Origin: Acaryochloris marina MBIC11017
GTDB taxonomy: Bacteria; Cyanobacteriota; Cyanobacteriia; Thermosynechococcales; Thermosynechococcaceae
DNA length: 32,000 bases
Assembly (NCBI RefSeq): GCF_000018105.1
Contig: NC_009927.1
Span: forward strand, 60,001-92,000
Direction: 5' to 3'
Every line of letters begins with the position of its first letter. The first letter of the stretch is position 1. Below, piece after piece: positions 9,284 to 27,850 of this stretch. Position numbers and translations under genes: made by a program. The notes under the pieces are model-generated. The model saw nothing but the letters and a program-made list of their open reading frames with translations. It had not been told where the DNA came from and made no database searches.

Positions 9284-9647
9284 ATGGCAACCAGCACCCC
9301 TCCACCTATCTATCCTGATGAAGCACTTGGGGCTAGCGGCCTTCTTGGCATCTGGCAGTTGCTCAAGTTTTCTCGAAAACCGATTGAATTTTCGGTCAAA
9401 TCTGCACAAGAATATGGAGACGCGGCAAGAATTAGCATTGGTTCGATTCACGTCTATATTTTTCATCATCCTGACCTGATTTCCGAAGTCCTCAGCAAAA
9501 AAAACGAACACTTTATTAAGGACATTAGCTATCGTTCTCTAGCAGGATTCCTTGGTAATGGACTTCTACTTATTGATGGAGAACATTGGCAGAAACATCG
9601 ACGCCTCATGCAACCTGCTTTCACTCAAGATAAGGTATCTACCTATA
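9284..9647 (+). pseudogene. cytochrome P450, N-terminal part (interrupted by an IS)
   Basis: The ORF reads ...HPDLISEVLSKKNEHFIKD...LIDGEHWQKHRRLMQPAFTQDKVSTY and then runs into the IS inverted repeat. Confidence 0.85.
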
Positions 9648-10581: not shown

Positions 10582-10585
10582 TATA

Positions 10586-12881: not shown

Positions 12882-13290
12882 ACGAGGTAGCGATAATTTT
12901 TTGTCTAAGTTTTAGTGAAAATAAGATATGGGTCGAATATTTTATGTTGGCGCAGTCCGATTTTCCGATTTAGTAGAGATCAAAGAGGGCTAAGACAAAT
13001 CTTTCAAACTGCTCTAGGGTCAAGTAGGTGTGAATCCATTGATTAGACTAGGTTTGAGATATCTGCACTCCTAATCGAACGTCAAACTAAAGGCTGGAGC
13101 CATTTTAGTCTGCGTCGGTGTGATGTTTGAGTCTATCACTGGCTAATCACCTGGTCTGTCTACATGGAAGTGTCTGAAGATTTTCAAAGGGGTGAGGTTG
13201 TTGAACCGCTTCCAAAATGACATTAGATCCTCCAGCAAAGCTGACTCATAATTTTACGTTTTGGTCAGTTTTTGGTAATCACAATTTAGA

Positions 13291-13307
13291 ATGATAATCA
13301 TTATCAT
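13291..13307. promoter_or_regulatory. Fur-family (Zur/Fur-type) operator, box A
   Basis: Perfect 8-1-8 palindrome ATGATAATcATTATCAT. In context, tAGAATGATAATCATTATC matches the classical 19-bp Fur box GATAATGATAATCATTATC at 17/19. It overlaps a TAGAAT -10-like hexamer (13287-13292) upstream of the COG0523 gene. Confidence 0.75.
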
Positions 13308-13484
13308 AATGAAAAACCTCATCCCTCTCATTATTTGTGAACCATCGGATTGATATTGCCATTATTGGGGCAGGTCCCCAGGCGCTCACCCTCTTTACTC
13401 AGCAATTGGAGGACACCATTGACTAACTCAACTGCAAGCGTTCAAACATCCCAATCCCTCGACATCAAGCTGCCCAAAAAAGGC

Positions 13485-14522
13485 ATGCCCGTTACGATCA
13501 TTACGGGGTTTCTAGGAAGTGGCAAAACCACACTCCTCAACCATATTCTCAATACCAGCCAAGACCTGAAGGTCGCCGTACTGGTCAATGAGTTTGGCGA
13601 TATTGATATTGACAGTCAGCTGTTGACCACCATTGATCAAGATATGGTCCAGCTAACCAATGGCTGCATCTGCTGCACGATCAATGATGACCTGGTGGAG
13701 GCGGTCTATTCCGTCCTAGAGCGAGAGGAAAAAATTGATCATATGGTCATCGAAACCACGGGGGTGGCAGATCCGCTACCGATTATTCTCACCTTCGTTG
13801 GTTCTCAACTGAGAGACTTAACGACTTTAGATTCCGTTATTACCTTGGTGGATTCAGAAACCTTTACCCCGGAATGTTTTCAGAGTGAGGCGGCCCTGAA
13901 TCAAATTACCTTTGGCGATATTGTCGTTCTCAACAAAACCGACCTAGCCGCTGATCAAAAGGTGGAAGAACTAGAGCAGTGGATTCGTGAGCAAAAATGG
14001 GGTGCGAGGCTGTTGCGATCTCAACAGGGCCAAGTCCCTCTACCCCTGATTCTGGATACTACCCTCTTTGATCCCAAAGCATATGAAGAGGAAGTCAAAG
14101 CCTTTGCGGAGCAGGGGACTCATCATGATGAACATGACCATCACCATCATGATGAACATGACCACCACCACGGCGAACATGACCATCATCACCATGGCGA
14201 TCACGATCATCACCATCATCATTCTGAGCACCTCACCATAGATGGATTTTCGTCAATGGCCTTTGAAAGCGATCGGCCCTTTGTTCTAGAAAAAATGCAG
14301 GCTTTCATTACCGATCAGCTACCAGAAGATGTCTTTCGAGCTAAGGGTTTTATGTGGTTTGAGAAAAATACATCCCGCTATATTTTTCAGCTCAGTGGCA
14401 AGCGCTATACGATGGACAGCGATCAGTGGCCTGATACCCCAAAAAATCAGCTGGTCTTTATTGGCCGCAATATTGACACAGCTCAGCTAAAACAACTGCT
14501 AACGGATTGCTTGGCCCCCTAA
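13485..14522 (+). CDS. COG0523 (CobW/ZigA/YeiR-type) metallochaperone GTPase with a His-rich insert
   Basis: Walker A GFLGSGKTT, metal motif GCICC, ETTGVADP and NKTDL. The His-rich segment is HHDEHDHHHHDEHDHHHGEHDHHHHGDHDHHHHHSEH. The start is uncertain: ATG 13485 (MPVTIITG), or TTG at 13419 or 13350. Confidence 0.9.
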   Translation: MPVTIITGFLGSGKTTLLNHILNTSQDLKVAVLVNEFGDIDIDSQLLTTIDQDMVQLTNGCICCTINDDLVEAVYSVLEREEKIDHMVIETTGVADPLPIILTFVGSQLRDLTTLDSVITLVDSETFTPECFQSEAALNQITFGDIVVLNKTDLAADQKVEELEQWIREQKWGARLLRSQQGQVPLPLILDTTLFDPKAYEEEVKAFAEQGTHHDEHDHHHHDEHDHHHGEHDHHHHGDHDHHHHHSEHLTIDGFSSMAFESDRPFVLEKMQAFITDQLPEDVFRAKGFMWFEKNTSRYIFQLSGKRYTMDSDQWPDTPKNQLVFIGRNIDTAQLKQLLTDCLAP

Positions 14523-14581
14523 TCCTTGATGTCGCTATAACTCATCCCGATTTCATAGCGCGGTAGATATGGCAATTCGGT

Positions 14582-14620
14582 TTGTTGCATCGTTATCCAG
14601 GACTGCAACAACACTTTTTT
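14582..14620 (+). terminator. rho-independent terminator after the COG0523 gene
   Basis: 8-bp stem TTGTTGCA / TGCAACAA (14582-14589 and 14604-14611) followed by CAC and TTTTTT (14615-14620). Confidence 0.6.
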
Positions 14621-14752
14621 AGAGTCAGATTGGAAGTTTCGCTGGGACAGGAATCAATAGCCTTATACCTCTGAAATTGACCACTTGCCTTCTAATAAAC
14701 AGCTCAGTAGCATAGCTTATTCAATTTAACTTCACTGAGGATATACAGAAGA

Positions 14753-15148
14753 ATGGTTACACTCAAAGACGCACGCCGGATCATTGCAGCTGCTGAGAAA
14801 AAGGCAGAGGAAATTGGCCAACCGATGAATATTGCAGTCGCAGACAGTGGTGGCAATTTAGTTTCTCATGTAAGGATGGATGGAGCCTGGATTGGTAGTA
14901 TTGACATCTCAATTAAAAAGGCCTATACATCGCGGGCTTTCGACATCTCCACCAAAGACTTAGCTGAACATAGCCAATCTGGGGGACAATTTTTTGGAAT
15001 ACATGCTTCCAACGGGGGACAAATCATGATCTTCGCTGGAGGGATACCTCTGATGCAAGATGGTGAAGTTGTTGGCGCTATAGGTGTCAGTGGTGGCTCA
15101 GGAGAGCAAGATCATGCTGTTGCAGAGGCTGGTGCAGACGCCTTTTAA
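14753..15148 (+). CDS. GlcG/HbpS-like (DUF336) heme/tetrapyrrole-binding protein
   Basis: 131 aa. The sequence ..IAVADSGGNLVSHVRMDGAWIGSIDISIKKAYTSRAF....GGIPL..DGEVVGAIGVSGGSGEQDHAVAEAG is the family signature. Confidence 0.85.
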   Translation: MVTLKDARRIIAAAEKKAEEIGQPMNIAVADSGGNLVSHVRMDGAWIGSIDISIKKAYTSRAFDISTKDLAEHSQSGGQFFGIHASNGGQIMIFAGGIPLMQDGEVVGAIGVSGGSGEQDHAVAEAGADAF

Positions 15149-15250
15149 GTGAAGAAGTTAGCGCGGTTGCGACCGACGTTATTAATGCTGATGAGTTGGG
15201 GTTTTTTTATCAAAAAAAACAGTACTGTGAGCCGGAGGAGTTGAGTGTTG

Positions 15251-15290
15251 GCGACTGTCTTTGACAAAACTCAGCTTCAAAGACAGTCGC
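15251..15290. other. perfect 14-bp hairpin between convergent genes (possible bidirectional terminator)
   Basis: Stem GCGACTGTCTTTGA / TCAAAGACAGTCGC with a 12-nt loop. No clear U-tract. Confidence 0.35.
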
Positions 15291-15492
15291 TTGGTACTCA
15301 GTGACTGTATTGGATAAGTATATCGATGACTTAGCTAAAGAATTGATTGAGAATACCGCAGGCAATACCCCATGTTTGCCACTCTCGATTCAAGAATGCA
15401 GATGCCCAACGAGCTGAATTGACGGAGCATGCTTGGGAATGGCGAGGTTTAGTATCCTATCCCAAATTTATTGGGGCATAATCATCAGATCT

Positions 15493-17346
15493 TCAGGCAG
15501 CAAAGGTAAAGTCATCGGCATTGAGAGACGTTGTGCCCATCAGTCGAGCAATAGTTGTTCCACCGATCCCAATTTCGGTATCGTCTCCAGTGACTGTTAG
15601 GGCAAGACCGTCAAATTTTAGATCTCCTTGCCCAGAGATACCAATTATGTCAAGGCCCTGCTCAAAGTCAACGATGGTGTTGGTGCCCTCCGGCAATTCA
15701 CCGTTAACAATCCAGAAGGCATCAGAGCCAGCACCTCCAGACAGCTTGTTGTCTCCGCCAATTTCTGTGAAGAAGCTATCGTCTCCGTCTCCACCAAGAG
15801 CGCGGCCATTGCTTCCCAGGAAGAACTGATCATGTCCTGCCCCACCGGAGAGTCTGTATCTTGAAGCTTCAGTTGCCTCAAATATGTCGTCTCCAGCACC
15901 ACCAAAGGCTCTATCGCGGTCTGCCACAAACGTAATGTCATCACCACTGCCGAGGCTGATGCGATTATCGCCAGCTGTGCTTCCAGCGATCGCTGTATCA
16001 ACGTCGTCATTTCCTGCCCCAGCAAAAACCATGTCACTAACACCATCAAAGCCAGGTGTAATAGATGCAAACAGATCATCGGCTTCGCTACTGCCTGCCA
16101 CAATATTGGAGTCTGTAGGAATTAGTTCCGTATCCGGTAGCGGGACTGTTTCATTTTGGGGAGAAATCAAAGCATAAGTCCCTGCAATATCGCTTGGAGC
16201 TTGGATGAAGGTCAGATCGGGATCTTCAAGTTGGGCAATGACATCGCCGGATAGTGTTGAGATTTGTAAGAGTGTGAAGGTTTCTCCGCCAAATTCCACT
16301 TCAATATTCTCGAATTGGTAATTTTCAATTGACTTTGCCATGATGAGTTGATCTTCTTTCGGATCAAAATCGCCTATTAAGGCATAATCTTGATCACCTT
16401 GCCCGACATAAAAATCAGTTCCATCATTTCCTAGCAAAATGCGGTTAACACCAAAGGCACCATGGAAGTGGTCATAGTCACCACTTCCAGTTGTTGCAGT
16501 GGTGATCACTTGGGTGGAAGGATCATAGGAAGTGATCGGCATTCCTGCGATGACCGCATTTCCCAAGGCATAGAAGAAAGAGTCACGACCCACTACACCA
16601 TTGAAAAACGTGAGTCGCTCTTCGTTAATTCCTGCCGCGAGAAAATGATCCCAGCCAGAATTATAGTCACCTGCATCCAGCAAAGCTTCTACATCAGGAT
16701 TGGCTGCCAGATATGCTGTTTCATTGAAATAGGGTTTACTACGGCTCGCATAGAAAGAATTTTCAGGTGCAAACAGTAGAATTCCGTTACTGGTAAATAA
16801 GCCATCTGGAATGAGCTGGGGAACATCTTCGATAATGCCTATCAGATCTCCATTTCTAGAGATATGGACACTGTTGTCGATGGTCTCAAAATCGTAGTCT
16901 TCAGGATTGCCAGCCAGATAAATAGCATCCTCACTGAAGGGGTCAAAAAAGCGAATTAAGGCGTAGTCGCGATCGCCTTCTCCCAAATAAAAATCTTGCG
17001 GGTTCTCTTCTGCATTATCCCCCAGGTAAAAAATGTTGCGTCCCGGTGAACCTAGTAGCGTGTCAAACTCCCCCACACCAAATGACTCAACTTGAGCATT
17101 GACCAATCTTCTTCCTGATTTAATGGATTGTACAGGCACCCCAAATATCGAGGATGTTTGTCCAGAGCTATGGATAATGTCGTCACCTGTCGTGCCGTTG
17201 AAAATTACACCATTACGCTGTTGAAATTGTCCAATCTGCACGTATTCTTCTAGTCCAGAAGCATATAGACCTTGGGCTACTGCTTCAGCAACTTGTGGGT
17301 TTTGATCTAGATAGATTGCCTCATTTAAAAAAGAATTGCTTGTCAT
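15493..17346 (-). CDS. RTX-type (hemolysin-type Ca-binding repeat) secreted protein with a duplicated N-terminal domain
   Basis: C-terminal GGxGxD nonapeptides (GAGNDDV, GSGDDIT, GGAGDDIF, GGAGHDQF, GGDGDDSF, GGAGSDAF). No signal peptide. There are two ~190-aa internal repeats (FLNEAIYLDQNPQVAEAV... and YFNETAYLAANPDVEALL...; ..GEGDRDYALIRFFDP.. and ..GQGDQDYALIGDFDP..). Confidence 0.9.
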   Translation of the reverse strand: MTSNSFLNEAIYLDQNPQVAEAVAQGLYASGLEEYVQIGQFQQRNGVIFNGTTGDDIIHSSGQTSSIFGVPVQSIKSGRRLVNAQVESFGVGEFDTLLGSPGRNIFYLGDNAEENPQDFYLGEGDRDYALIRFFDPFSEDAIYLAGNPEDYDFETIDNSVHISRNGDLIGIIEDVPQLIPDGLFTSNGILLFAPENSFYASRSKPYFNETAYLAANPDVEALLDAGDYNSGWDHFLAAGINEERLTFFNGVVGRDSFFYALGNAVIAGMPITSYDPSTQVITTATTGSGDYDHFHGAFGVNRILLGNDGTDFYVGQGDQDYALIGDFDPKEDQLIMAKSIENYQFENIEVEFGGETFTLLQISTLSGDVIAQLEDPDLTFIQAPSDIAGTYALISPQNETVPLPDTELIPTDSNIVAGSSEADDLFASITPGFDGVSDMVFAGAGNDDVDTAIAGSTAGDNRISLGSGDDITFVADRDRAFGGAGDDIFEATEASRYRLSGGAGHDQFFLGSNGRALGGDGDDSFFTEIGGDNKLSGGAGSDAFWIVNGELPEGTNTIVDFEQGLDIIGISGQGDLKFDGLALTVTGDDTEIGIGGTTIARLMGTTSLNADDFTFAA

Positions 17347-17376
17347 GACTCGCCTCTTTCGATGCGTTGATAAACT

Positions 17377-17399
17377 ATGAGAATGATTATCATTCTCAT
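17377..17399. promoter_or_regulatory. Fur-family operator, box B
   Basis: Perfect 11-1-11 palindrome ATGAGAATGATtATCATTCTCAT. The core GAGAATGATTATCATTCTC matches the 19-bp Fur box at 16/19. It lies 31 nt upstream of the RTX-like gene ATG (17346). Confidence 0.7.
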
Positions 17400-17783
17400 G
17401 GCTGGCATGCGAGTTGTTTTTAAGCCTTTCTTTAAAACTGACTTCGGTTTTTATTTATTTAAACTGAAATATGGGCTTTTAAACCTAATATGAATAACTG
17501 AAAAAGATTAAATGGGCAATTTCATCGTCTCACTTTGAAAATCGCCACTATTATTCCGTTTGCCAGGCACGACAAAATGGATCTCCGTCTTGGAGAACAA
17601 TAAATCCTTTGATTTAAAGTTGAGACTAACCTTGGTAAAAATGTCGGAGATTGATCATGGTGTATGCCAAGCTTTTCAACGCATAATGCCGTTTTCTGAT
17701 TCGCTTAAACCGGAGCAACAAACGCTTGATTTTATCCTCTTTCTATCATTCCCTGCGTTAGCCATCAGTCACCTGTTAAATTG

Positions 17784-17816
17784 AATTCCCCCGCGGGCTC
17801 AGCCTGCGGAGGAATT
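17784..17816 (-). terminator. putative terminator hairpin after amiF
   Basis: 11-bp stem AATTCCCCCGC / GCGGAGGAATT (one G-U in the minus-strand RNA) with an 11-nt loop. It starts 29 nt past the amiF stop. The U-tract is weak (CAAUUUAAC). Confidence 0.4.
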
Positions 17817-17844
17817 TCCCCAAGAATAAATGGAAGTAAAAGAG

Positions 17845-18888
17845 TTAAGAACTAGTTCCCACTAAGGTCTTTGCAGATTCTTCTGTTGGCAGAGGCCCAA
17901 GCTTGACTCCATCAGGATAGTATTCCCAACCATCTCTGATCTGGATGTCTTTATCCCAGGGTAACTGGTACTTTCCTTCCGCCAAGTCCTTTACCCAAGT
18001 CAGGTAATTTTCACGCTCTCCACCAGGTTTACCCACGTAGCCTCGGCAACCAACATTGAAGACATTGTTTTCAAGAGCCCAGTTTTTGCGGGCCTCATCT
18101 ACCAGTCTTGGGAATAATTCAGCCGTCACAATTTCCCAAGGATTACGATGGCCCTGCTGAAGTACATTGCCATCGTAGTTGCAAACAGTTCCTTCACCAA
18201 AGTAGTAAAACACACCGTCATAACCCGCCAAGTTGACGGAGATGGTGTACATCAAGTTTTGCCAAGCATTAGTTTGATTGGTCAAGATCCACTGATCATT
18301 GACCTGAGTTGAATATCCTGAGATGCGAATATAAACGTTGCACCCTTTATAGGCAGCTTCTCGCGCTAATTCAGGGAACATCCCATCATGACAAATACAA
18401 ACTGCTAGTTTAGAGCCTTTCGGTCCATCACATACGGGCATCCCATAATTACCTGGATACCAGGGCTCAATCGGTACCCAAGGCTGCAATTTGCGATAGT
18501 GAAGGGCAATTTCTCCTTGATCATTAATGATAATTGCAGTGTTGAATGGGGGAAGTCCAGGTACATCATTTTTCTCCATAAGAGAAAAGACTCCCCAAAC
18601 TTTGTTGCGCACACAAGCTTCTTTGAACTGATCAATTTCTGGACTATCTACTGTCAAAAGCATTTCGTCATATGTCCAGATTTTTGTGTTAAGTCCTTGA
18701 GTGGAGTACTCTGGCATCACAATCAGATCCAAGCCAGGATAACCTGCTTTAGTGTTGTCAACGGCTTTACAAATTTGCTTGACCTGAGTCTGAATATCTT
18801 CGGGGCCAGTGATAACTGGAACCGGATATTGAATCATGGCCACTAGCAGAGACTCGGACCATGAACTGACACTTCCTGTACTACCCAT
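17845..18888 (-). CDS. amiF: formamidase (nitrilase-superfamily aliphatic amidase, AmiF type)
   Basis: Long stretches match Helicobacter pylori AmiF as I recall it ([78 protein letters not shown]). The start is placed at MGSTGSV (ATG 18888, AGGAGGA 8 nt upstream). The 27 codons upstream in the track ORF look spurious. Confidence 0.93.
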
Positions 18889-18970
18889 ATCGAAGTCCTC
18901 CTGAGGACAGTGGTATATGACCAGCATCATATGGGGGCAGATATGTGAGTTATGTATATGCCCACACAAA

Positions 18971-18991
18971 TGAGAATGATTATTATTCCCA
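18971..18991. promoter_or_regulatory. Fur-family operator, box C (imperfect)
   Basis: TGAGAATGATtATTATTCCCA, with half-sites complementary at 8/10. It shares aTGAGAATGATTAT with box B. It lies 83 nt upstream of the amiF ATG, in the divergent region shared with the gene at 19194. Confidence 0.55.
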
Positions 18992-19193
18992 CTTCATGAC
19001 ATGCCTTAATAGCTGAATCTGTCGAGGTATTAAGAGATTATGGAATGCTGCAGGTAAATATCACTGAGTACTGCTCATAAGGAGTCTCAGCGTTTCAGAC
19101 CAGGACGTAGCCGTTTTAACACTGTGTTCGCCGGTGCAGCGGATAACTGGAGTATGCAGCGGATGCTCTTGGTTTACTTTGGGAGTTGTAGTC

Positions 19194-19367
19194 ATGACTG
19201 CTGAGGAATTGTTGGAGCGATATGCTTCTGAAGAAAGGGACTTTGCTGGCGTTGATTTGCTTGGTGCCAATTTGGCTGAGGCCCAATTAACTGAGGTGTG
19301 CTTGAATCAAGCTGATTTAACTGACACAAATCTGGTTGATGTATGCCTAATTGATGCTCGGAATTAG
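19194..19367 (+). CDS. short pentapeptide-repeat protein (57 aa, possibly truncated)
   Basis: MTAEELLERYASEERDFAGVDLLGANLAEAQLTEVCLNQADLTDTNLVDVCL... The N-terminus is typical of cyanobacterial pentapeptide-repeat proteins, but only about 7 pentapeptides precede the stop. Confidence 0.55.
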   Translation: MTAEELLERYASEERDFAGVDLLGANLAEAQLTEVCLNQADLTDTNLVDVCLIDARN

Positions 19368-19538
19368 CTAAATTTATTTATTTCAGCAAGACCTAAATAT
19401 GCCTGTAGGTGTTGAGACCCGCAAACTTAGTTCCAATTATTCAGTTATTGCCGGGCAGAACCTCCCCCAGGGCAGAGCCACAGACTGAGCACAAACTATT
19501 GTTCATGTTCCGCCAGTTAGATGGTGATCAGGTAGTCA

Positions 19539-19943
19539 TCATGGTTTCTTTGTGGCAGCAATGGCCAGTTTCGCACCTTCAATTTCGCGAATGCGATCCA
19601 TCACCGTCACGACGCGGCCATGACTCACTTGGTCATCTGCATGAATCACCACCACTACCTTGTCAGCTGAATCAGTTAGCTCCTTCACTTCTGCCTCAAG
19701 GACGTTGAGCTGAATGGGTTCTCGATTGAGAGCTAAATCCCCCTGCGCATCAATCGTGACCGTCACCTTGGTCGATAGCTGTGGTTTTACTGTCTTTGCC
19801 TGGGGCAAATTAACAGGTAAGGCATCACTGCGGTTGAGGAATAACGTGGCAATGATAAAAAAGGACAGAATTGCAAAAATAACATCAATCATCGGCACAA
19901 TATTGATTTGAGCCGATGGACTGGGATCATCGGGTAAGCGCAT
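19539..19943 (-). CDS. exbD: ExbD/TolR family biopolymer transport protein
   Basis: 134 aa; the INIVPMIDVIFAILSFFII signature transmembrane segment is present. It overlaps the upstream exbB by 17 nt. Confidence 0.9.
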   Translation of the reverse strand: MRLPDDPSPSAQINIVPMIDVIFAILSFFIIATLFLNRSDALPVNLPQAKTVKPQLSTKVTVTIDAQGDLALNREPIQLNVLEAEVKELTDSADKVVVVIHADDQVSHGRVVTVMDRIREIEGAKLAIAATKKP

Positions 19944-20580
19944 GATTCACCCTGCCTCTTTCATAGCGGTGACGATAAAGCAACTCCAACTGCCCCCCAT
20001 GCTCTTGAATAAAGGCCAACTGGCGCTGATATAAACTGCGAAACATATTGGCAAAAATCAGGGTTGAAATGGCGACAATCAATCCCGCAGCCGTTGAAAT
20101 TAGGGCGGTACTTATTCCCCCGGTGACTTCTGCTGATTCACTACCGCCGATATTGCCTACATCTAGGGAGGAGAAGGAGTTGATCAGGCCCAATACCGTC
20201 CCTAATAGGCCGAGTAAAGGGGAAATACTAATGATGGTGTCAAACACCGTCGTAAATCGTTTCAATGTCGGCAATTCAGCTTGAGCTTCACTTTCTAATG
20301 CCAATCGGAATTCTTCCGGTGTCGGGTCTTCTAAGGACAAGGCAGCTAAGAATATCCGGGCAATCGGAAATCTTGCTTGCTCTTGGAGATACCTCAAGGC
20401 GTCATAGACATTATCTTGGCGATAAAGCTGCAGTGCCTGTTTGACGATCCGCAACTGGTTGCGATTCACCCTCGTCCAAAAGATGAGGCGTTCAAAAATC
20501 AGTGCGATCGCAATTAACGAAAAAACCATGAGCGGGAGCATCACCACTCCTCCCGCAATAATCACTTGGCCAAACTGCAT
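19927..20580 (-). CDS. exbB: MotA/TolQ/ExbB proton-channel protein
   Basis: 217 aa with three transmembrane segments. The conserved ..ISPLLGLLGTVLGLI..F........GGISTALISTAAGLIVA.. region is present. Confidence 0.9.
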   Translation of the reverse strand: MQFGQVIIAGGVVMLPLMVFSLIAIALIFERLIFWTRVNRNQLRIVKQALQLYRQDNVYDALRYLQEQARFPIARIFLAALSLEDPTPEEFRLALESEAQAELPTLKRFTTVFDTIISISPLLGLLGTVLGLINSFSSLDVGNIGGSESAEVTGGISTALISTAAGLIVAISTLIFANMFRSLYQRQLAFIQEHGGQLELLYRHRYERGRVNHALTR

Positions 20581-20795
20581 TTTGTTGATACCCCTCCATT
20601 CATTACAGCGACAAGAGAAGACCGATTACTCTGACCGTAACCACAGCAAACGGCATTAGTTCTGAGAGCATAAAACTGCGAATAAATACACCAAGAGGCA
20701 CTGATACAGCAACCACCCTTGCTGCACGCTGAGCCTATAAAGCGATGTCGAGATTTCGGCATAATCGGCCATATATGAGACATTAAATCCATAAC

Positions 20796-21878
20796 TTAAT
20801 ACAAGGATTGCTGCCGCTTTAACATCAGCCAAATCAGGATGGGGGCACCCAGCACAGCCATCACTGCATTGAGGGGTAGAACGGACTGACTCCCTGGAAG
20901 TTGAGAGATCGCATCGGCAATCAAAGCTAAGATGGCACCGAGCAGAGCCACAGCTGGGACTAGGATGCGATGATCGACGGTTCGAAATAAACTCCGGCAC
21001 AGATGCGGGACAGCGACTCCCACAAATGCAATAGGTCCACAAAAGGCCGTAACCGATCCTGATAATAAGGAAGAACTGAAGATCAAAAGGCATCGGGTTC
21101 GATTGACAGACAGCCCTATACTTTGAGCTTGCGCTTCCCCCAGTAACAGCAAATTTAAAGCTTTATGCAACAGTTGTGATCCCCCAAGTCCTAAGGCAAT
21201 GACAGGCAACAACAAGGGCATCTGTTGCCAAGTCACATTCGAAAAACTACCAAAGGTCCAGTTGAGGTATGCCTGGGTCTGAGTAAGCAAACTGAAATGC
21301 AAAAGGATAGTCACTAGAGCAGTGGTCATATACCCAAACATGAGGCCAAAAATAAGCAGTGCTAAAGCACTACGCACCCGTTGAGCCACTAGTAGCACCA
21401 CCCCCATGGACATCCCTGCGCCCAAACTGGCCGCCCCAATAATGCTGATCTGAACAAAACCATTGCCAGCGTTAGCTGTCCCTCTAGTTAAAACCACGAG
21501 AGCGGCCCCCAAACTAGCGCCAGCATTAATGCCTAGCAAGGAAGGCCCTGCAAGTGGATTGCGGAATAATGCCTGTAGCTGTAATCCGCTCGTTGCTAAG
21601 GCAGAACCCGCTGCGATCGCAGTTATCGTTCTAGGCAATCGAAACTGGAGAATAATCTGTTGCCAGGTCGGATTCGTGGCCTGACCTCCGAACAACACAG
21701 TGATCACGTCTGATAGGGGAATCGAGACAGATCCAAAAGCCAGGCTGACTAGCACCCCCATTAACAAGACACTACTTAGAACCCCTAAACCAGCGTAACG
21801 GCTGATTTGCGGCCTTCCATGTAGTGGGTCGGGAAGATGTCTATCGTTCCCATCAGTCATCGCTGAGGACATATCCAT
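20796..21878 (-). CDS. FecCD/BtuC-family ABC transporter permease
   Basis: 360 aa. RLPRTITAIAAGSALATSGLQLQALFRNPLAGPSLLGINAGASLGAAL is the family signature. About 9-10 hydrophobic segments. Confidence 0.93.
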   Translation of the reverse strand: MDMSSAMTDGNDRHLPDPLHGRPQISRYAGLGVLSSVLLMGVLVSLAFGSVSIPLSDVITVLFGGQATNPTWQQIILQFRLPRTITAIAAGSALATSGLQLQALFRNPLAGPSLLGINAGASLGAALVVLTRGTANAGNGFVQISIIGAASLGAGMSMGVVLLVAQRVRSALALLIFGLMFGYMTTALVTILLHFSLLTQTQAYLNWTFGSFSNVTWQQMPLLLPVIALGLGGSQLLHKALNLLLLGEAQAQSIGLSVNRTRCLLIFSSSLLSGSVTAFCGPIAFVGVAVPHLCRSLFRTVDHRILVPAVALLGAILALIADAISQLPGSQSVLPLNAVMAVLGAPILIWLMLKRQQSLY

Positions 21879-21881
21879 TTC

Positions 21882-22661
21882 TCACTGCTGTACATATTCA
21901 ACCCGTTGTACCCAAGTGCGATGAGTGCCATTAGGATCAAGAGATAACAGCCGAAACCCAGGCAGATGAGTATGATCAGTTGGTACAGGTGGATTCACCT
22001 GTAAACAAGTGGAAGGACAACCGTAGAAGTAAATCGGTGAGGGACGTTGGCTGAAAACATGCTGATACTGGAAGTCCAAGTGGATATGTCCAAACAGCAC
22101 CACTTTCACTTGTGGGAAGCTCTCCAACAGGGTGAGCAATGCATCAGCATTTTGCACCTGCATTTGATCCAGCCAGTCGATACCGATTGCCACAGGATGA
22201 TGGTGTAGGGCAATCACCGTAGGTTTATGAGGATGTTGAGTCAAGACTGATTGCAACTGTTGCAAGGCGCTGACTGATAAATACCCTTCACCAAACTGAG
22301 CAGAAGGCAACACTGAGTTGAGTGAAATAAGCAGCCAGCTCCCCAGATGAATTGCCTGTGGCCCATAGAGTTGAGGAGACTGCAGTTCCCGATGCATGGC
22401 CTCAACTTGATCATGGTTACCAGGCAGCCAGTAAGCTGGCATCTTCAAGGGTAAGATTGCTCTCATTAAATGCTGATAAGCAACGACACTCCCTTGATCG
22501 GCTAAATCCCCCGTTAAGAGAATTCCATCCAGTTGATCTCGATTCACTTGCTGCAGAACAGCCTGTAAGGATTGCCAAGGATTAGTCCCTCGTAGCAGTG
22601 CCGTTGTATCTGCCAACAGATGGGTATCACTGATTTGTGCAAGCGTAATGGGGGCCGTCAT
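21882..22661 (-). CDS. metallophosphoesterase (CpdA/Icc-like class III phosphodiesterase fold)
   Basis: Motifs DTHL, GDLADQG, GNHD, HHHP and GHIH occur in the canonical order. Its ATG overlaps the stop of the binding-protein gene (ATGA), and its stop is 3 nt from the permease ATG. Confidence 0.88.
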   Translation of the reverse strand: MTAPITLAQISDTHLLADTTALLRGTNPWQSLQAVLQQVNRDQLDGILLTGDLADQGSVVAYQHLMRAILPLKMPAYWLPGNHDQVEAMHRELQSPQLYGPQAIHLGSWLLISLNSVLPSAQFGEGYLSVSALQQLQSVLTQHPHKPTVIALHHHPVAIGIDWLDQMQVQNADALLTLLESFPQVKVVLFGHIHLDFQYQHVFSQRPSPIYFYGCPSTCLQVNPPVPTDHTHLPGFRLLSLDPNGTHRTWVQRVEYVQQ

Positions 22662-23920
22662 GAGTCTAATTTTTGGTAATAAATCAGTTGATGATTAGGC
22701 AATAACTCTGGGTGGAAAATCTTGATCAAGTCTGCTAGTACCTTATGGGGGTTTACAACCCCGCTTTCCCAATAATCGTTGCCGCCAGCAGCATTGACCC
22801 GAGCCGTATTATTGAAGACGCGATCAGCTTGGACTGCAGACAGTTGACCGTAGCGAGCATCGGTTGAGATCGCATCTTGTCTCGATCTCCAATCTTGGCT
22901 GACATTAACCCAGAACTCAGCCTTCACTGCTCGATTAAACACTGCTTCAAAGTCCAGGGGTAGACTCCCTCTTGCATCTGACTCTGACCAGAGATAGTTG
23001 GCACCTGCATCCTGCAAGAGCTGGGACACATAACTTTTGCCTCCCGGCATATACCAGGTGCCATTGTGACTAAACCCCGTAAACACCGTGGGACGTTGGG
23101 CCACAGATTGAGCCAACTGCACCATCGATTGATACTCTTGGGCTATATCGGAAAAGACCTGTTCTGCCTGCGCTTCTTGATTAAAAAATAGGGCCGTATA
23201 CTTTAACCACTCTGCTTGTCCCAGGGGGGATTCCTCCATATATTCCCCCACCAGGGCAACGGGTAGACCTGCCTTGACCAGACGAGGATGACTATCTGTG
23301 TCTGGGTTACCCGTTCCATAGGTCATCACCAAATCCGGTGCTGTCACCAGCAGCCGCTCCACATCTAAGGTATTGCCAGAATTAAACTCAACCAGTTCAC
23401 CCCGATCAATTTTGGCCCGCACCTTTAGACTATTCACTTGCTTAAACTGGCTGACACCGACAAGGGTATCTAGCTGACCTAACAGTTCCAAGTGAGGTAA
23501 ATAGGTCGTGGATAGCACGACTAGACTGCTAATCGGTACTTCCACCATCGGCAGATCTTCAAAGCCTGGGGGTTTGGGTGTTCCACACTGCACTAGCAGA
23601 TACTGAAAGGTTTGGTTTGCCCCTTTCCAGGGATTCTGAACGGTAACTATTTTGTAGTGACGGTGATACTCTACCGAGAAACCCACGGCATAGTCAGACT
23701 GGACCTTATTGGGGAAATAATCTTGAGTAGGATCGTACGCAACAGGACATTGATCGGCAGAAGTTGGTGAAGAATCAGATTTCAGGGCTGATGGTGATTG
23801 GGTTGGCTGGCAACCAACTCCCCCTAGGAATCCAACGACAGCCAATCCCGCCGTTACTTTCAGCAGTCGAATCCAGCCAGAAGTAGCGTAGTCACTGATG
23901 GATGCTTTGGGTTCCTTCAT
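22658..23920 (-). CDS. ABC transporter periplasmic substrate-binding protein (siderophore/heme/B12 class)
   Basis: The region ..VVLSTTYLPHLELLGQLDTLVGVS......VERLLVTAPDLVMTYG... is typical of FhuD/BtuF-class binding proteins. The start is set at MKEPKAS (23920), giving a signal peptide ending GGVGC and avoiding a 92-nt overlap with the upstream gene. Confidence 0.88.
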   Translation of the reverse strand: MKEPKASISDYATSGWIRLLKVTAGLAVVGFLGGVGCQPTQSPSALKSDSSPTSADQCPVAYDPTQDYFPNKVQSDYAVGFSVEYHRHYKIVTVQNPWKGANQTFQYLLVQCGTPKPPGFEDLPMVEVPISSLVVLSTTYLPHLELLGQLDTLVGVSQFKQVNSLKVRAKIDRGELVEFNSGNTLDVERLLVTAPDLVMTYGTGNPDTDSHPRLVKAGLPVALVGEYMEESPLGQAEWLKYTALFFNQEAQAEQVFSDIAQEYQSMVQLAQSVAQRPTVFTGFSHNGTWYMPGGKSYVSQLLQDAGANYLWSESDARGSLPLDFEAVFNRAVKAEFWVNVSQDWRSRQDAISTDARYGQLSAVQADRVFNNTARVNAAGGNDYWESGVVNPHKVLADLIKIFHPELLPNHQLIYYQKLDS

Positions 23921-23936
23921 CCTGTCGTCGCTAGGG

Positions 23937-24824
23937 CTATACAGAGGCTTGAGTTTTGATCGGGGGATAGACATGGGCTTGAATAGGGCGGCCTTGAGCG
24001 ACATGCTCCTGAACAATTCGGTGGGCAATCTCAGGAGTCACGCGGGTATACCAAGTGCGATCCCCGGAATAAAACACCACTGGCCCAGCAGCACAAACTT
24101 CTAAACAGCCAGAGGTTCTCACGGCAACCTCCAAACCTGACTGCTGTACAGCCGTTTGTAATGCCTCAATAATGGGCTGCACATCCTGAGAGGGATAGCA
24201 GCGGCTGGATCGACAGACTGACAGATAGGGTCGCTTGAGTGGATTCTCAGTATAGGGAATGGGACGAGTTCCCAATACATAAATATCGCGCAACGTTTCA
24301 TAGAGGCTCAGTTTATCCAGTTGGGGTGTCCCTTCCGGTAGCAAGTTCTCGTCGGCATCCACAAAGGGATTGGGTAAAAAGAGATTCATCATCTTTTCTC
24401 CAGCTCCATTCCAGAACTGAATCCCCCAACTTCGTGCTTGGCCGCGATCATTGAAGCGGCGGTAAAACGAGGCTCGCTGTACCTGTCGTTTTCGTCTCAA
24501 CGCTGGAGGGGTTTTGCCGAGGGGACCACCCTGATGTTCTTCTAGGCATAGATGCAAATGCCATCCTGCCGTCACAACCGTCAGATAGCCATCGTACAAA
24601 ATACAAGTTTTAGGGGCTTGGGTAAATTCCAGCTCAAGAACGCTCCCCTCTACTACGTGACCAATCTGGGTTTGTTGCCAGCACTCTTGAAACAGGGTGT
24701 AAAGCAGAGGCCCCAGGACCTCAATGGTGCAAGGAAAATCTTCATACTCGATCTGTCCTCCAGTCGCTAAGGGGTCAACGGTACGGTAGTTTAAAGGGAC
24801 GACTTGACGTGAAAATTCAGACAT
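23937..24824 (-). CDS. two-domain protein: ChuX/HutX-like N-terminal domain fused to a thioredoxin-like [2Fe-2S] ferredoxin domain
   Basis: C-terminal ~90 aa: YLSVCRSSRC...GCLEVCAAGPVVFYSGDRTWYTRVTPEIAHRIVQEHV, the CxxxxC...CxxxC pattern of thioredoxin-like 2Fe-2S ferredoxins. N-terminal ~190 aa: SVLELEFTQAPK..DGYLTVVTAGWHLHLCLEE...SWGIQFWNGAGEKMMNLFLP resembles E. coli ChuX as I recall it (VILEFSGELP..GYFNL..GHIKAE...SILFFNKEGSAMLKIFLG). The N-terminal assignment needs a profile search. Confidence 0.85.
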   Translation of the reverse strand: MSEFSRQVVPLNYRTVDPLATGGQIEYEDFPCTIEVLGPLLYTLFQECWQQTQIGHVVEGSVLELEFTQAPKTCILYDGYLTVVTAGWHLHLCLEEHQGGPLGKTPPALRRKRQVQRASFYRRFNDRGQARSWGIQFWNGAGEKMMNLFLPNPFVDADENLLPEGTPQLDKLSLYETLRDIYVLGTRPIPYTENPLKRPYLSVCRSSRCYPSQDVQPIIEALQTAVQQSGLEVAVRTSGCLEVCAAGPVVFYSGDRTWYTRVTPEIAHRIVQEHVAQGRPIQAHVYPPIKTQASV

Positions 24825-24848
24825 CTTAGTTAAGTCCTACAATAAGTC

Positions 24849-26915
24849 CTAAAAAGTGGCACTCACACCCAGGCGAAAACTCCGACCCACTGCCGGAAAA
24901 CCTGGAAATTGTTCATAATGCTGATCTAACAAATTGTCTAAACTGCCCGTGAAGGCAAAGCTATCCCCAATCGGGAAACGAAGCTTGAGATCGAGCGTGG
25001 TATAGCCCGGCAAGGATTCTGTATTCGTGTTGTTGACAAAGTAGGAACTGAGATAGCGGACAATGGCGGCGATATAGACACCTTTTGCATTCTCATAGGC
25101 CAAACCAACATTGAGGCTATCCGCGCCGCGAAAGCTGAGTTCATTACCTGTAATCGTAGGGTCGCCATCCTCAATAATTTCAGGCTCATTCAAGGTGTAG
25201 TTGGCAAAGGCATACAGGTTTTTGAGCAGTCGCACATTCAAATCCGCCTCTAAACCCAGCGTCCGCACCTTGCCGATATTTTCATAGGTACTAGGGGCAC
25301 CAAACTGAAAGTTAATCAAGTTAGAGATGGTATTGGCAAAGAAGGTGAGGCGTAACAAGCCATTCTCCCCCAGGGATTGGTCAATGCCAATATCAAAACT
25401 ATCGCCCCGTTCTGGCTCTAAATCAGGGTTACCCACCACATTAAAGGCAGCTAAGCCTTCTAGGTTGACGATTTGAGGTGCTCGAAAACTCCTGGCATAA
25501 TTCGCCCGTAAAACCGTGGAATCTCCTATGGCAAGACGAGCCCCCACACTAGGAGAGGTAAAGGAACCATTAGCTAAACTATTGAAATCTTGGCGCAAAC
25601 CAAAATTGAGATTGAATTTTGGCGTAATGTTGACGTCATAACGGGCAAACAAGGCCCCTTGATCAATGCCGCCATCATAGTTAACATCTGTGGTTCCCAG
25701 ACCATAGCTAAAAGTGGTGTTCCGAGACTGGGTATTGCGGTAGTCAAATCCATAGGTCAGGGTTTGGTTTTTGGCGACTTTCCAGTTGTGCTGGACTTGT
25801 GCCCCAATAGAGCGGCGATCAACATCATCTCGTGTGCCAAAGGCTGCAGGGTCTGGATTATCAAAGTTGGAGTCCAGCAGATCCGCAAAAATCCGGCTGG
25901 TGAGTTGGGAGTTGCCCGCCTGGTCCAGTTGGGCTTGCCAAGTCAGATCTAGGAAGAGTTCTTCCGTGGTTTGCCGGGCTAAAGGGGTCAGGCTATTAAA
26001 TTGGCCAATACTGTCGGGAATTGGCACACCCCCAGCCGAGCCAAAATCTTTGTTCAGATAGAGGGCGCTGAAGGTTACCTGGTTGCGATCGCTGAGTTTT
26101 CCTTCCAGCTTCAGATTCAGATTGTTGTACAACACGTCGGCGTTGTTCCGATCTGCTTGCAATCCAATCCGGTTAATCTCAAACGGAAAGTCATTCGTCG
26201 CCTGGGTGCGGGTATAGCCAACGCTCCACCCCAAATCCCCACTGCGCCCCCGAGCCTGCACGGCTTGCTCATTGAGCCCAAAACTTCCAGCCGCAGCTCT
26301 GAGGGTCACCTCCGGTTTTTCGTCAGCAGGAGCACGAGTAATGATATTAATCACGCCCCCTAAGGCATCGGAGCCATAGAGGGTCGATCCTCCACCTGGC
26401 AAGAGTTCAATCCGCTCTATATTGTCCGTCGTGAAATTCGATAGATCAAATCCACCCATAAACCCCACGTCATTAATGGGGCGACCATCTAGCAAAATCA
26501 AAACTTGAGCTGTGTTACTCCCCCGAATAAACTGGCTACTCAGAGCTCCTAGTTGTCCCCCAGCTGTGCCGTCCCTCAGAATTCCTGGGAGATATTTCAA
26601 CGCTTCTTGGACCGTTCTCGCGCCTTGGGCCTCAATTTGCTCGCGATTAATCACATACACCGGGCGAGACGAATCACGCACCGTGCCTTCTCGCCGAAAG
26701 GGGGCATAAACGGGCTGATCTAAGATTTCTCCCGTGACTGTAATTTCTACTTCTTCGTCCTCCACTATCGAAGAAGGTAGGGCCTCCTCATCGGTAGGGG
26801 GATTCGCTTGTGCCAGGCTAGCTCTTGAAGTGTAGCTAAACCAGGCAGTTAAACTGAGTCCAAAAACGAATATGAGCTTCCCAATGACAGGAAACCCAAC
26901 TTTTACACCTTTCAT
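24849..26915 (-). CDS. TonB-dependent outer-membrane receptor (BtuB-like by context)
   Basis: 688 aa with a signal peptide and a TonB-box-like EITVTG. Plug-domain motifs are present (IRGSNTAQVLILLDGRPIND, LYGSDALGGVINIITR), and the beta-barrel ends in the terminal F (..LGVSATF). A cobalamin riboswitch precedes it. Confidence 0.95.
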   Translation of the reverse strand: MKGVKVGFPVIGKLIFVFGLSLTAWFSYTSRASLAQANPPTDEEALPSSIVEDEEVEITVTGEILDQPVYAPFRREGTVRDSSRPVYVINREQIEAQGARTVQEALKYLPGILRDGTAGGQLGALSSQFIRGSNTAQVLILLDGRPINDVGFMGGFDLSNFTTDNIERIELLPGGGSTLYGSDALGGVINIITRAPADEKPEVTLRAAAGSFGLNEQAVQARGRSGDLGWSVGYTRTQATNDFPFEINRIGLQADRNNADVLYNNLNLKLEGKLSDRNQVTFSALYLNKDFGSAGGVPIPDSIGQFNSLTPLARQTTEELFLDLTWQAQLDQAGNSQLTSRIFADLLDSNFDNPDPAAFGTRDDVDRRSIGAQVQHNWKVAKNQTLTYGFDYRNTQSRNTTFSYGLGTTDVNYDGGIDQGALFARYDVNITPKFNLNFGLRQDFNSLANGSFTSPSVGARLAIGDSTVLRANYARSFRAPQIVNLEGLAAFNVVGNPDLEPERGDSFDIGIDQSLGENGLLRLTFFANTISNLINFQFGAPSTYENIGKVRTLGLEADLNVRLLKNLYAFANYTLNEPEIIEDGDPTITGNELSFRGADSLNVGLAYENAKGVYIAAIVRYLSSYFVNNTNTESLPGYTTLDLKLRFPIGDSFAFTGSLDNLLDQHYEQFPGFPAVGRSFRLGVSATF

Positions 26916-26944
26916 CCATACCTCGCAGATGTTGTAAGTGAGTA

Positions 26945-27065
26945 ATAACTCGGCGGGCGTTCTGACTCTGAGGACAAAGCCTCATCACAGTTGCGGGACA
27001 GCGCCGGATTTTCACCGGACTTTCCCCGTTTCCTCTAACGGCTGTTCTCCGTTAGAACCGAATCT
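26945..27065 (-). promoter_or_regulatory. cobalamin (B12) riboswitch
   Basis: The minus strand reads GGAAACGGGGAAAGTCCGGTGAAAATCCGGCGCTGTCCCGCAACTGTGATGAGG...CAGAGTCAGAACGCCCGCCGAG. This carries the conserved GGGAA..GGTGAAAATCC..GCTGTCCCGCAACTGT core and a B12-box-like AGTCAGAAcGCCcGCC. It ends about 30 nt before the receptor ATG. Confidence 0.85.
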
Positions 27066-27187
27066 ATAAAATTGTTTCTGCACCTTATCACAGGAATGAG
27101 ATGCATTAGAGAGAAGCGGAAGGCACATAGGAATTTGCCAATATCTTGGAATAGATTGAACCGCTTGAATAAGTTTTTATACTGAGA

Positions 27188-27204
27188 ATGATAATCATTA
27201 TTAT
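27188..27204. promoter_or_regulatory. Fur-family operator, box D
   Basis: ATGATAATcATTATTAT, with half-sites at 7/8. In context, GAGAATGATAATCATTATT matches the 19-bp Fur box at 17/19. It sits just upstream (minus sense) of a TATAAA -10-like hexamer (27176-27181) and about 120 nt upstream of the riboswitch. Confidence 0.65.
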
Positions 27205-27214
27205 TCTTTTTTGC

Positions 27215-27850
27215 AAACCAGCCCCCAACACCACCAATCGTCGATTGTCCGCAGTCAAGTCAATGGTATGGATGGTCCATCGCCTTGATATGTGCGATTG
27301 GATGTTGGCTGTAGTGGATGGACGGACGGTGAAGCTCTACCGGGATACTCGGGGGATTTCGTCATCGCATGCTGATATACATCAATCAGTTTCCCCTGGC
27401 TGGGTCTCGGAACTATGCGATGACGACACTGTTCTGGGAGGCTGGATTGCGACGGTCTGAGCTGGTGAACTGCGATGTCTGCCATTTTGACCTGGAGCAG
27501 AAACGGTTGTCCATTTTAGGGAAGGGACGGAATGAATGAGAGTGGATTGATCTGACGGTGAGCGGCGTTCAGGGGATTTTCAGGTGGTTGGAGCTACGAG
27601 GGGAATGTGCCCCTACTGATCCATTATTTATATCGTTGGATCGGGTGATAGGGAGTCGTAGTTATCGGTGACATCGTTATGTCGAATAGTCCGGGCTTCG
27701 GCTAAGAAGATGGGGGTAAGTGAAGATTTTGGCCCCCATAATAGTGGCACAACCACATATTTAGAAATGACGGGTGGGGATTTGAGAGGTACCCAGGCAT
27801 ACTCTCGGCATGCCAAGCTCAAGTGGATCAACGAACCATTCAGGTTCCTG
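27215..27850 (+). pseudogene. tyrosine recombinase/integrase remnant (N-terminally truncated, several frame disruptions)
   Basis: Pieces lie in three frames: NRRLSAVKSMV...YRDTRG; then AMTTLFWEAGLRRSELVNCDVCHFDLEQKRLSILGKGRNE* (box I GLRRSE...GKG); then KMGVSEDFGPHNSGTTTYLEMTGGDLRGTQAYSRHAKL (box II, with the HxxR arginine lost). Confidence 0.7.

Follow-up and report, generated by a model that had tools for sequence, protein, structure and literature searches.

Four probable Zur operators upstream of COG0523, RTX-like, formamidase and cobalamin uptake genes on a plasmid of Acaryochloris marina

The DNA analysed here is a stretch of 32,000 nt from Acaryochloris marina MBIC11017 (NC_009927.1, positions 60,001-92,000), hereafter called the window. 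It contains four similar palindromic boxes, each located upstream of a separate transcription unit: a gene for a His-rich COG0523 GTPase, a gene for an RTX-like protein, a formamidase gene, and a B12 uptake operon that starts with a cobalamin riboswitch and a TonB-dependent transporter (TBDT). The boxes are very probably operators of a cyanobacterial-type zinc uptake regulator Zur (FurB clade) and not of the iron regulator Fur. Zur regulons of this type are already known, and the RTX-like protein, the formamidase and the B12 uptake operon are new or little-studied members. A preliminary description of this DNA had presented the boxes as Fur-family operators in front of four different units, which is supported. 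Pfam, NCBIfam and RefSeq annotation agree on all four units. With 6 mismatches and 1 gap, the window has 99.978% identity to a part of plasmid pREC1 of A. marina MBIC10699, a conjugative plasmid of 393.6 kb, where it corresponds to the reverse complement of NZ_AP026076.1 178743-210741.

The boxes were delimited as 23-mers centred on the dyad and compared with the RegPrecise consensus of cyanobacterial Zur, the 23-mer NTNANAATGATNATCATTNTNAN with 16 specified positions, which was taken from the methods of Mikhaylina et al. 2022 (PMC9337993). In addition, a position weight matrix (PWM) was built only from these four boxes. Their positions, sequences and scores are as follows:

13285-13307, no strand: putative Zur box A, TTTAGAATGATAATCATTATCAT; 16/16 of the RegPrecise consensus (no mismatch); PWM 26-27 bits
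17377-17399, no strand: putative Zur box B, ATGAGAATGATTATCATTCTCAT; 16/16 of the RegPrecise consensus (no mismatch); PWM 31 bits
18970-18992, no strand: putative Zur box C, ATGAGAATGATTATTATTCCCAC; 14/16 of the RegPrecise consensus (2 mismatches); PWM 26 bits
27182-27204, no strand: putative Zur box D, CTGAGAATGATAATCATTATTAT; 16/16 of the RegPrecise consensus (no mismatch); PWM 26-27 bits

Box B is a perfect 11-1-11 palindrome, and box C is the most degenerate of the four. All four strings claimed earlier are present in the window and lie far above chance. The shared core GAATGATWATYATT, allowing up to two mismatches, gives 10 strand-hits, all of them in the four boxes, where 1.36 are expected, and this number was reached in 0/100 shuffles of the window. 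For the 19-bp Fur box of E. coli, 7 strand-hits occur in the window at up to three mismatches (0.01 expected), and the RegPrecise consensus gives 5 (0.01 expected). The overall span first given for the boxes (13286-27204) stands; the left ends of A (13291), C (18971) and D (27188) do not, since the strings quoted for the boxes truly span 13286-13307 (A), 17377-17399 (B), 18970-18991 (C) and 27182-27204 (D). The similarity among the boxes stops at about 23 bp, and the flanks are unalike. Therefore, the boxes are not copies of a longer repeat, and the idea that they are the ends of a repeat or mobile element was rejected.

Matches to the classical Fur box of E. coli, GATAATGATAATCATTATC, amount to 17/19 in boxes A and D and 16/19 in box B (17/19 on the opposite strand), as had been described; box C, for which 13 had been claimed, matches at 14-15/19. 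Such a likeness to the Fur box (14-17/19) does not separate Fur from cyanobacterial Zur. The Fur box shares a hexamer-array architecture with the window boxes and can also be read as two overlapping 7-1-7 sites. This 7-1-7 model of the Fur box is reportedly that of Baichoo and Helmann, in the B. subtilis reading.

Each of the four boxes consists of two overlapping matches to the 7-1-7 Zur element of Anabaena, TGATAATNATTATCA, with an offset of exactly 6 bp. The matches start at 13286/13292 in box A, 17378/17384 in box B, 18971/18977 in box C and 27183/27189 in box D. In box A, the two sites span 13286-13300 and 13292-13306, and the second is a perfect TGATAATCATTATCA, the sequence of the top-scoring Anabaena Zur site at alr3242 (site sequences from the S3 table of PMC10957091). 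The Zur protein of Anabaena/Nostoc PCC 7120 (FurB, All2473) uses the same element, often as two sites with a 6-bp offset over the -10 element (PMC10957091). The architecture of each window box is shared by the double site of Anabaena all3515, where the two overlapping sites bind Zur in electrophoretic mobility shift assays (EMSA; PMC10957091). Also, the GAGA...TCTC flanking arms of the boxes are features of the cyanobacterial Zur logo and not of the Fur box.

A scan with a PWM made from the four boxes had been proposed in the preliminary description. It was carried out over the whole of pREC1 (394 kb, assembled from ten pieces) and 17.6 kb of pREC2, and sites of at least 19 bits were regarded as strong. 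All nine strong loci of pREC1 are found within record positions 141.5-197.5 kb, an island of 56 kb in a plasmid of 393.6 kb, and they are located upstream of genes. Elsewhere on pREC1 no site scores above 14.7 bits, and 0-1 hits are obtained in shuffles that preserve the composition. An even density of the motif regardless of promoters, which the preliminary description had named as a refuting observation, is thus not seen. The five further strong sites on pREC1 are upstream of metH, folE, cysS (divergent from thrS), an oxidoreductase gene and a gene for a Zur-type regulator. On pREC2, sites are present upstream of znuA, znuC, a cysS paralog, a COG0523 paralog (93.6% identical) and a second zur (a Fur-family gene). 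The cysS, folE and metH genes among these encode paralogs of zinc enzymes (CysRS, FolE, MetH). The four boxes had been described as a local regulon. The regulon is not confined to four boxes, which form the right-hand part of the nine-site, 56-kb island, and a second island is present on pREC2.

The regulator gene with a box on pREC1 encodes WP_012167016 (131 aa) and is located about 0.9 kb past the right end of the window. Fur-family relatives around the window were ranked by their best PDB matches. For WP_012167016, the best match is SynZur of Synechococcus sp. WH8102 (7NE9; PMC9337993) with 103 bits, which makes it the closest solved relative, followed by the Zur proteins of M. tuberculosis and S. 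coelicolor. The pREC2 paralog is 89% identical. A box is located about 60 nt in front of both zur genes, and autoregulation of zur is therefore likely, judging from these predicted sites. None of the Fur-family models of NCBIfam reached its equivalog cutoff for the nearby Fur paralogs, and the assignment to the Zur clade therefore rests on the ranking of PDB best hits.

Four Fur-family genes are clustered within 6 kb of pREC1, at 172171-177854 (positions 42172-47855 of the pREC1 piece L003), 0.9-6.5 kb past the right end of the window. They encode a proteobacterial-type Zur beside zigA, a PerR-like protein, a Fur-like protein and the cyanobacterial-type Zur. The proteobacterial-type Zur has 161 aa, with Xanthomonas 7DH7 and E. 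coli 4MTD as best PDB matches, and a different palindrome is present in the region upstream of zigA (L003 44175-44213). This suggests a second, putatively imported Zur system with its own operator at zigA. In addition, an SmtB/ArsR repressor gene and a metallothionein gene, which form a zinc-excess system, are located inside the zinc-limitation island without a Zur box (pREC1 164625-165317; L003 34626-35318).

Box D precedes the B12 uptake operon, and the description of this unit as a B12-riboswitch/TBDT operon was confirmed. Promoters were predicted with a simple sigma-70 consensus scan. The features of the unit are:

27188-27216, minus strand: predicted promoter of the B12 uptake operon, with -35 TTGCAA at 27216-27211, a 17-nt spacer and -10 TATCAT at 27193-27188
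26935-27077, minus strand: cobalamin riboswitch aptamer (RF00174), 58.3 bits against a gathering threshold of 31.5, full-length model match
24849-26915, minus strand: TBDT, BtuB2-like; B12 and heme receptor families score best, none reaching its cutoff; btuB2 synteny
23937-24824, minus strand: DUF7676/thioredoxin-like [2Fe-2S] protein, counterpart of Anabaena alr4030
22658-23974, minus strand: periplasmic binding protein, BtuF-like (Peripla_BP_2)
21882-22661, minus strand: metallophosphoesterase, inside the operon and present in many syntenic loci
20796-21872, minus strand: FecCD/BtuC-type ATP-binding cassette (ABC) permease (Pfam and RefSeq)
19927-20580 and 19539-19943, minus strand: ExbB and ExbD, 215 nt downstream of the permease gene

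The predicted promoter is covered by box D at its spacer and -10 element. The riboswitch is located 19 nt upstream of the TBDT start (ATG at 26915), and a Shine-Dalgarno sequence, GAGG at 26924-26921, is located 11-14 nt past the aptamer. No intrinsic terminator was predicted in the leader of the operon, so the control by the riboswitch is probably translational. The exbB and exbD genes have no separate Zur box and are probably part of the operon transcript. Because the promoter that Zur would occlude, the riboswitch and the TBDT start codon share a single leader, both low zinc and low corrinoid would be needed for expression.

The same kind of operon is known from Anabaena, in which alr4027-alr4033 (btuB2, btuFCD) serves the uptake of cobalamin and is controlled by a cobalamin riboswitch (Graf et al. 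2024, PMC10878165). The genes alr4028-4033 are also Zur-regulated (PMC10957091, PMC6103462). Zur is not mentioned in PMC10878165, and in the papers on Zur this TBDT is taken for a presumptive zinc importer. The Anabaena operon has the same gene order (TBDT, ferredoxin-like/DUF7676, BtuF-like, BtuC-like) with the riboswitch upstream. The window operon differs in containing a metallophosphoesterase gene and in lacking a BtuD ATPase gene. The wiring differs as well. Anabaena and 12 other loci have an additional gene (alr4027) behind the riboswitch, with the Zur box placed between this gene and the TBDT gene, so that there are two separate entry points for transcription, whereas in the window the Zur box is upstream of the riboswitch in one serial leader.

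To place these arrangements among cyanobacteria, the DUF7676 protein was used as a query, which gave 80 cyanobacterial loci that were annotated with tblastn, nhmmer and the PWM; counts refer to the 46 loci with sufficient upstream sequence. The riboswitch calls of nhmmer were confirmed by Rfam in 10/10 loci checked. The order TBDT, DUF7676, BtuF-like, (phosphoesterase), BtuC-like is kept across the phylum. A Zur box is present in front of the TBDT-DUF7676 operon in 25 of the 46 loci, and 19 of these also have a B12 riboswitch. By arrangement, 22 loci have the riboswitch only, 13 have the riboswitch, then an extra gene and then a Zur box directly upstream of the TBDT gene, 6 have the Zur box only and 1 has neither. 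The Zur box directly upstream of the riboswitch, as in the window, is rare and was found in four loci, namely an Acaryochloris metagenome-assembled genome (MAG), a related MAG, Leptolyngbya sp. AN02str and Alkalinema. In Nostocales, the sites have the sequence (T)GATAATAATAATCATTATC(T), which is the triple overlapping site of Anabaena alr4028-4029 (PMC10957091).

Several observations around this operon deserve mention. In the Acaryochloris sp. IP29b MAG, a close relative, two cobalamin riboswitches (59 and 65 bits) are arranged in tandem and a Zur box is placed between them (contig L016, 4265-4888); a transcript from the Zur promoter carries only the second riboswitch as a consequence. On pREC1, a riboswitch paralog at 159215-159402 (L003, about 29216-29403) is 92.6% identical to window 26912-27097 and is located upstream of a fragment of a cobalamin-independent methionine synthase gene, a DUF1636 gene and cobW. 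A metH paralog on pREC1 (L003 11600-15241) encodes a full-length cobalamin-dependent methionine synthase and has a 24-bit Zur box about 80 nt upstream (L003 11504-11522). It was considered whether this MetH is a zinc-free variant, and this was rejected, as the cysteine motifs LNCATGP and GGCCGT are kept. Directly upstream of box D, an open reading frame (ORF) at 27369-27539 (plus strand) resembles a fragment of a tyrosine recombinase/integrase, and it may mark the boundary of an acquired B12 uptake module.

Box A precedes the COG0523 unit, and the His-rich COG0523 gene described behind it was recovered with its cobW and CobW_C domains:

13278-13307, plus strand: predicted sigma-70-type promoter of the COG0523 gene, with -35 ATCACA, an 18-nt spacer and -10 TATCAT at 13302-13307
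13419-14522, plus strand: His-rich-linker COG0523 G3E GTPase, putative zinc metallochaperone (WP_012166989; cobW and CobW_C)
14753-15148, plus strand: HbpS-like/GlcG protein (PF03928), downstream of the COG0523 gene

In the consensus scan, the predicted -10 element of the COG0523 promoter is inside box A. The protein has the features of Zur-linked metallochaperones: a cobW GTPase domain, CobW_C, a His-rich stretch and an upstream Zur box. It scores 198.9 bits with the ZigA model (cutoff 600) and 187 with CobW (332), and since both scores are below cutoff, it is regarded as a COG0523 member and not as a ZigA or CobW equivalog. The next gene had been called ChuX-like, for which Pfam gives HbpS-like/GlcG (PF03928) instead. 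It follows after a 230-nt gap and has no box of its own, and whether it is co-transcribed with the COG0523 gene is uncertain.

The preliminary description had held that sequence alone cannot decide between Zur and Fur, and that the TBDT fits Fur equally well. If the boxes were operators of an iron-responsive Fur (FurA-type), the units would be induced by iron limitation. The matches to the classical Fur box at 14-17/19 agree with this, and a Fur-like paralog, WP_012167019, whose best PDB matches are Fur proteins, is encoded about 3 kb past the window. Also, TBDT and ExbBD are typical Fur targets, the HbpS-like "heme" protein is consistent with an iron or heme system, and FurA and Zur are known to cross-talk in Anabaena (PMC10957091). 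However, all other strong sites on pREC1 and in the pREC2 island precede classical zinc-limitation genes (znuABC, zur, COG0523, cysS, folE), and in the same DNA none of the boxes stands in front of a siderophore, fut, feo or isiA gene. The window boxes thus differ from the classical Fur box in going with zinc and not with iron genes, and their fit to the cyanobacterial Zur consensus is perfect in A, B and D. The TBDT does not belong to an iron/heme system, as its leader carries a cobalamin riboswitch and the operon is syntenic with the btuB2 cobalamin uptake operon of Anabaena (PMC10878165). Control by Fur, the main rival reading, is therefore very unlikely. Sequence and context together do point to Zur, through the consensus fit, the zinc targets in the same organism, the Zur-clade regulator nearby and the btuB2 synteny of the TBDT.

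We consider it extremely unlikely that the boxes are bound by a diverged, plasmid-specific Zur paralog that senses another metal, with cobalt as the candidate, or by the PerR-like paralog. Five Fur-family genes are clustered just past the window, and the island holds many elements related to cobalamin (two B12 riboswitches, cobW, DUF1636 and metH), which would agree with such a sensor. Against it, the same motif binds the zinc-sensing Zur of Anabaena and Synechococcus WH8102 in EMSA (PMC10957091, PMC9337993), the boxed regulator aligns over its full length with SynZur, CxxC motifs included, and znuABC bears the same box. That the boxes are relics without a function, or that mobile elements have spread them as a short repeat, is scarcely credible despite an insertion sequence (IS) element at 9711-10564, the integrase remnant at 27369-27539 that adjoins box D and the highly mosaic plasmid, since the likeness of the boxes ends at about 23 bp, all four are intergenic and properly placed upstream of genes, and orthologous genes in distant cyanobacteria keep the box at the same relative place with diverged flanks. 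Such conservation of sites upstream of orthologs in other species is seen for the RTX-like gene, the TBDT-DUF7676 operon and the formamidase gene.

With Zur as the regulator, the following mechanism is proposed. When zinc is sufficient, zinc-loaded Zur dimers would bind the boxes, presumably two dimers per box by analogy with Anabaena, and RNA polymerase would be excluded from promoters whose -10 elements the boxes overlap or adjoin. Overlap of a Zur site with the -10 element is the geometry of Zur repression in Anabaena and Synechococcus (PMC10957091, PMC9337993), and the latter study, whose consensus fits the window boxes, describes repression in this way. SynZur also activates a metallothionein gene via upstream boxes, and a comparable activating arrangement is not apparent in the window. 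When zinc is scarce, Zur would lose its sensory zinc and leave the DNA, and the four units would be derepressed: the COG0523 metallochaperone, possibly together with the HbpS-like protein; the probably secreted RTX-like protein; the metal-free formamidase; and the BtuB2-type corrinoid uptake operon (TBDT, DUF7676, BtuF-like protein, phosphoesterase, BtuC-like permease and probably ExbBD). For the last unit, low zinc would permit transcription and low corrinoid would permit translation. The binding and repression by Zur, the start sites and this AND logic of the fourth unit are inferences, and we base two dimers per box, the zinc dependence and the derepression under zinc limitation on the related systems.

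Several points weigh against the assignment to Zur and against this mechanism. The Acaryochloris evidence is sequence-based, and the PWM scan covered one whole plasmid and 17.6 kb of a second. Cross-binding by the Fur paralogs encoded nearby could occur in view of the 14-17/19 match to the Fur box. The organism also has several Zur-like paralogs, each of which is a candidate occupant of the boxes, namely the two plasmid copies (89% identical) and the proteobacterial-type Zur; a chromosomal Zur copy of A. marina has also been reported (PMC3323870). Repression by promoter occlusion may apply to boxes A and D, which have a predicted -10 element inside. Around box B the promoter scan found no promoter, and the single one that it predicts near box C is about 50 nt upstream of that box. 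A weak -10 element inside box C (AATAAT) could serve, or Zur could act there as a roadblock. The ATG of the RTX-like gene follows box B at a distance of 31-53 nt, so the box must overlap any core promoter there.

Box C is located 82-104 nt upstream of the ATG (18888) of the formamidase gene:

17845-18888, minus strand: AmiF-type formamidase of the nitrilase superfamily, with metal-free Cys-Glu-Lys chemistry; NF009803 602.7 bits (cutoff 406), PF00795 CN_hydrolase

The identification as a formamidase, made earlier, is borne out by the NF009803 score above its cutoff. The closest named relatives (81-87% identity) are from Legionella, Photorhabdus, Klebsiella and Corynebacterium, so the gene was probably acquired horizontally. 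Identity to the AmiF proteins of these genera is 78-87%, which is unusually high across phyla and points to recent horizontal spread. A formamidase that is 93% identical is encoded in a stromatolite MAG, with a 24-bit Zur box 81 nt upstream of its gene and a second Zur box upstream of a phosphoesterase operon in the same locus. Boxes of about 19 bits are present at two copies that are more distant. No relevant literature was found on a formamidase as a Zur target in cyanobacteria. FmdA formamidase is a metal-dependent enzyme. By analogy with other Zur regulons, the presence of AmiF would fit the logic in which a metal-free enzyme replaces a metal-dependent one. On one of the two distant contigs (L098, 722-3700), the AmiF homolog is found beside an FmdA/AmdA-type formamidase, a gene for a Zn-ribbon (FmdB-like) protein and an amide/urea (branched-chain/urea-type) ABC transporter, so that both kinds of formamidase are present in one amide-utilisation locus.

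The RTX-like gene described behind box B was likewise confirmed:

15493-17346, minus strand: RTX-like protein of 617 aa (WP_012166993), probable type I secretion system (T1SS) substrate, with C-terminal GGxGxD repeats

No T1SS genes were seen in the window. About 50 full-length homologs with 49-74% identity were found, nearly all of them cyanobacterial where the source is named. Only the C-terminal third of the protein is common to PhoX-type phosphatases and other RTX proteins. Many homologs contain PF00353; the window protein itself has no significant Pfam hit, and Pfam and NCBIfam returned nothing for the N-terminal 400 residues or so. This N-terminal module is duplicated and of unrecognised fold. 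In the alignment of the family, H234, H293 and H295 are the only invariant histidines of the 400-residue N-terminal part, in which aspartates such as D292 are invariant too, giving the motif D292-H293-x-H295 besides H234. The AlphaFold model is of modest quality, with a pLDDT of 66.5 and a pTM of 0.50, and Foldseek found only the RTX beta-roll (RTX lipases, serralysins and CyaA, E about 1e-6), with TM-scores below 0.2 on this pLDDT 66 model.

A Zur box is present upstream of the RTX-like gene in 8/8 loci that could be read, the window included. The seven others are from Myxosarcina, Leptolyngbya IPPAS B-1204, Oculatellaceae Prado106, Synechococcales CRU_2_2 and three metagenome contigs. Boxes of the homologs have 21-28 bits and are located 44-324 nt upstream, and the neighbouring genes include hemB2, folE, thrS, cobW, znuA/B/C, hisI, pyrC and metE. 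No literature linking RTX-like proteins to Zur in cyanobacteria was found.

Between box B and the formamidase stop codon, a stretch of 445 nt (17400-17845) is without an annotated gene and contains only short ORFs; part of it (about 17436-17739) is 77% identical to a "hypothetical protein" region on a plasmid of Acaryochloris "Moss Beach". ZepA is a Zur-controlled zinc exoprotein with a PEP-CTERM signal. The window also encodes a PEP-CTERM sorting-domain protein of 236 aa (5855-6565, minus strand), which is without a Zur box. Elsewhere in the window, a gene for a cytochrome P450 is interrupted by an insertion of the IS4/IS5 family (9284-11577), with the N-terminal P450 fragment at 9284-9673, transposase orfA/orfB at 9711-10564 and the C-terminal part at 10615-11577.

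Compared with the Zur regulon of Anabaena, the target classes are the same (COG0523, TBDT with ABC components, znuABC, and thrS/folE/hemB paralogs). The Acaryochloris regulon differs in that it is located on large conjugative plasmids, with duplicated islands and duplicated, boxed zur genes. Also, the RTX-like protein and AmiF are not among the Zur targets in the Anabaena literature compared. With the metal assigned in this way, the plasmid segment would be part of a zinc-limitation island and not an iron/heme system, which changes the likely function of its transporter, labelled "iron ABC transporter" and "siderophore transport" in RefSeq. The Zur and B12-riboswitch literatures on Anabaena btuB2 describe one locus without reference to each other, and the comparison of loci indicates that its dual control is widespread in cyanobacteria.

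Two ideas may be combined in a joint reading, which is offered as a tentative and rather doubtful one: that the RTX-like protein represents an unrecognised, conserved family of Zur-controlled cyanobacterial exoproteins, and that the control of B12 uptake and metH by Zur is a zinc-sparing strategy. A link of B12 uptake to methionine synthesis is suggested by the metH gene with a Zur box on this plasmid. If the second idea is true, B12 imported under zinc starvation would let the cells make methionine via the catalytically efficient MetH, and the wiring in Acaryochloris would be a true AND gate. If the first is true, the RTX-like protein may capture extracellular zinc via H234/D292-H293-x-H295, as an analogue of ZepA, or it may be a zinc-independent exoenzyme. 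Three testable leads come out of the analysis: an RTX-like gene that is always behind a Zur box in cyanobacterial zinc islands; the dual control of btuB2-type operons by Zur and a riboswitch, with its serial version in Acaryochloris; and AmiF, which may substitute for a metal-dependent FmdA-type amidase.

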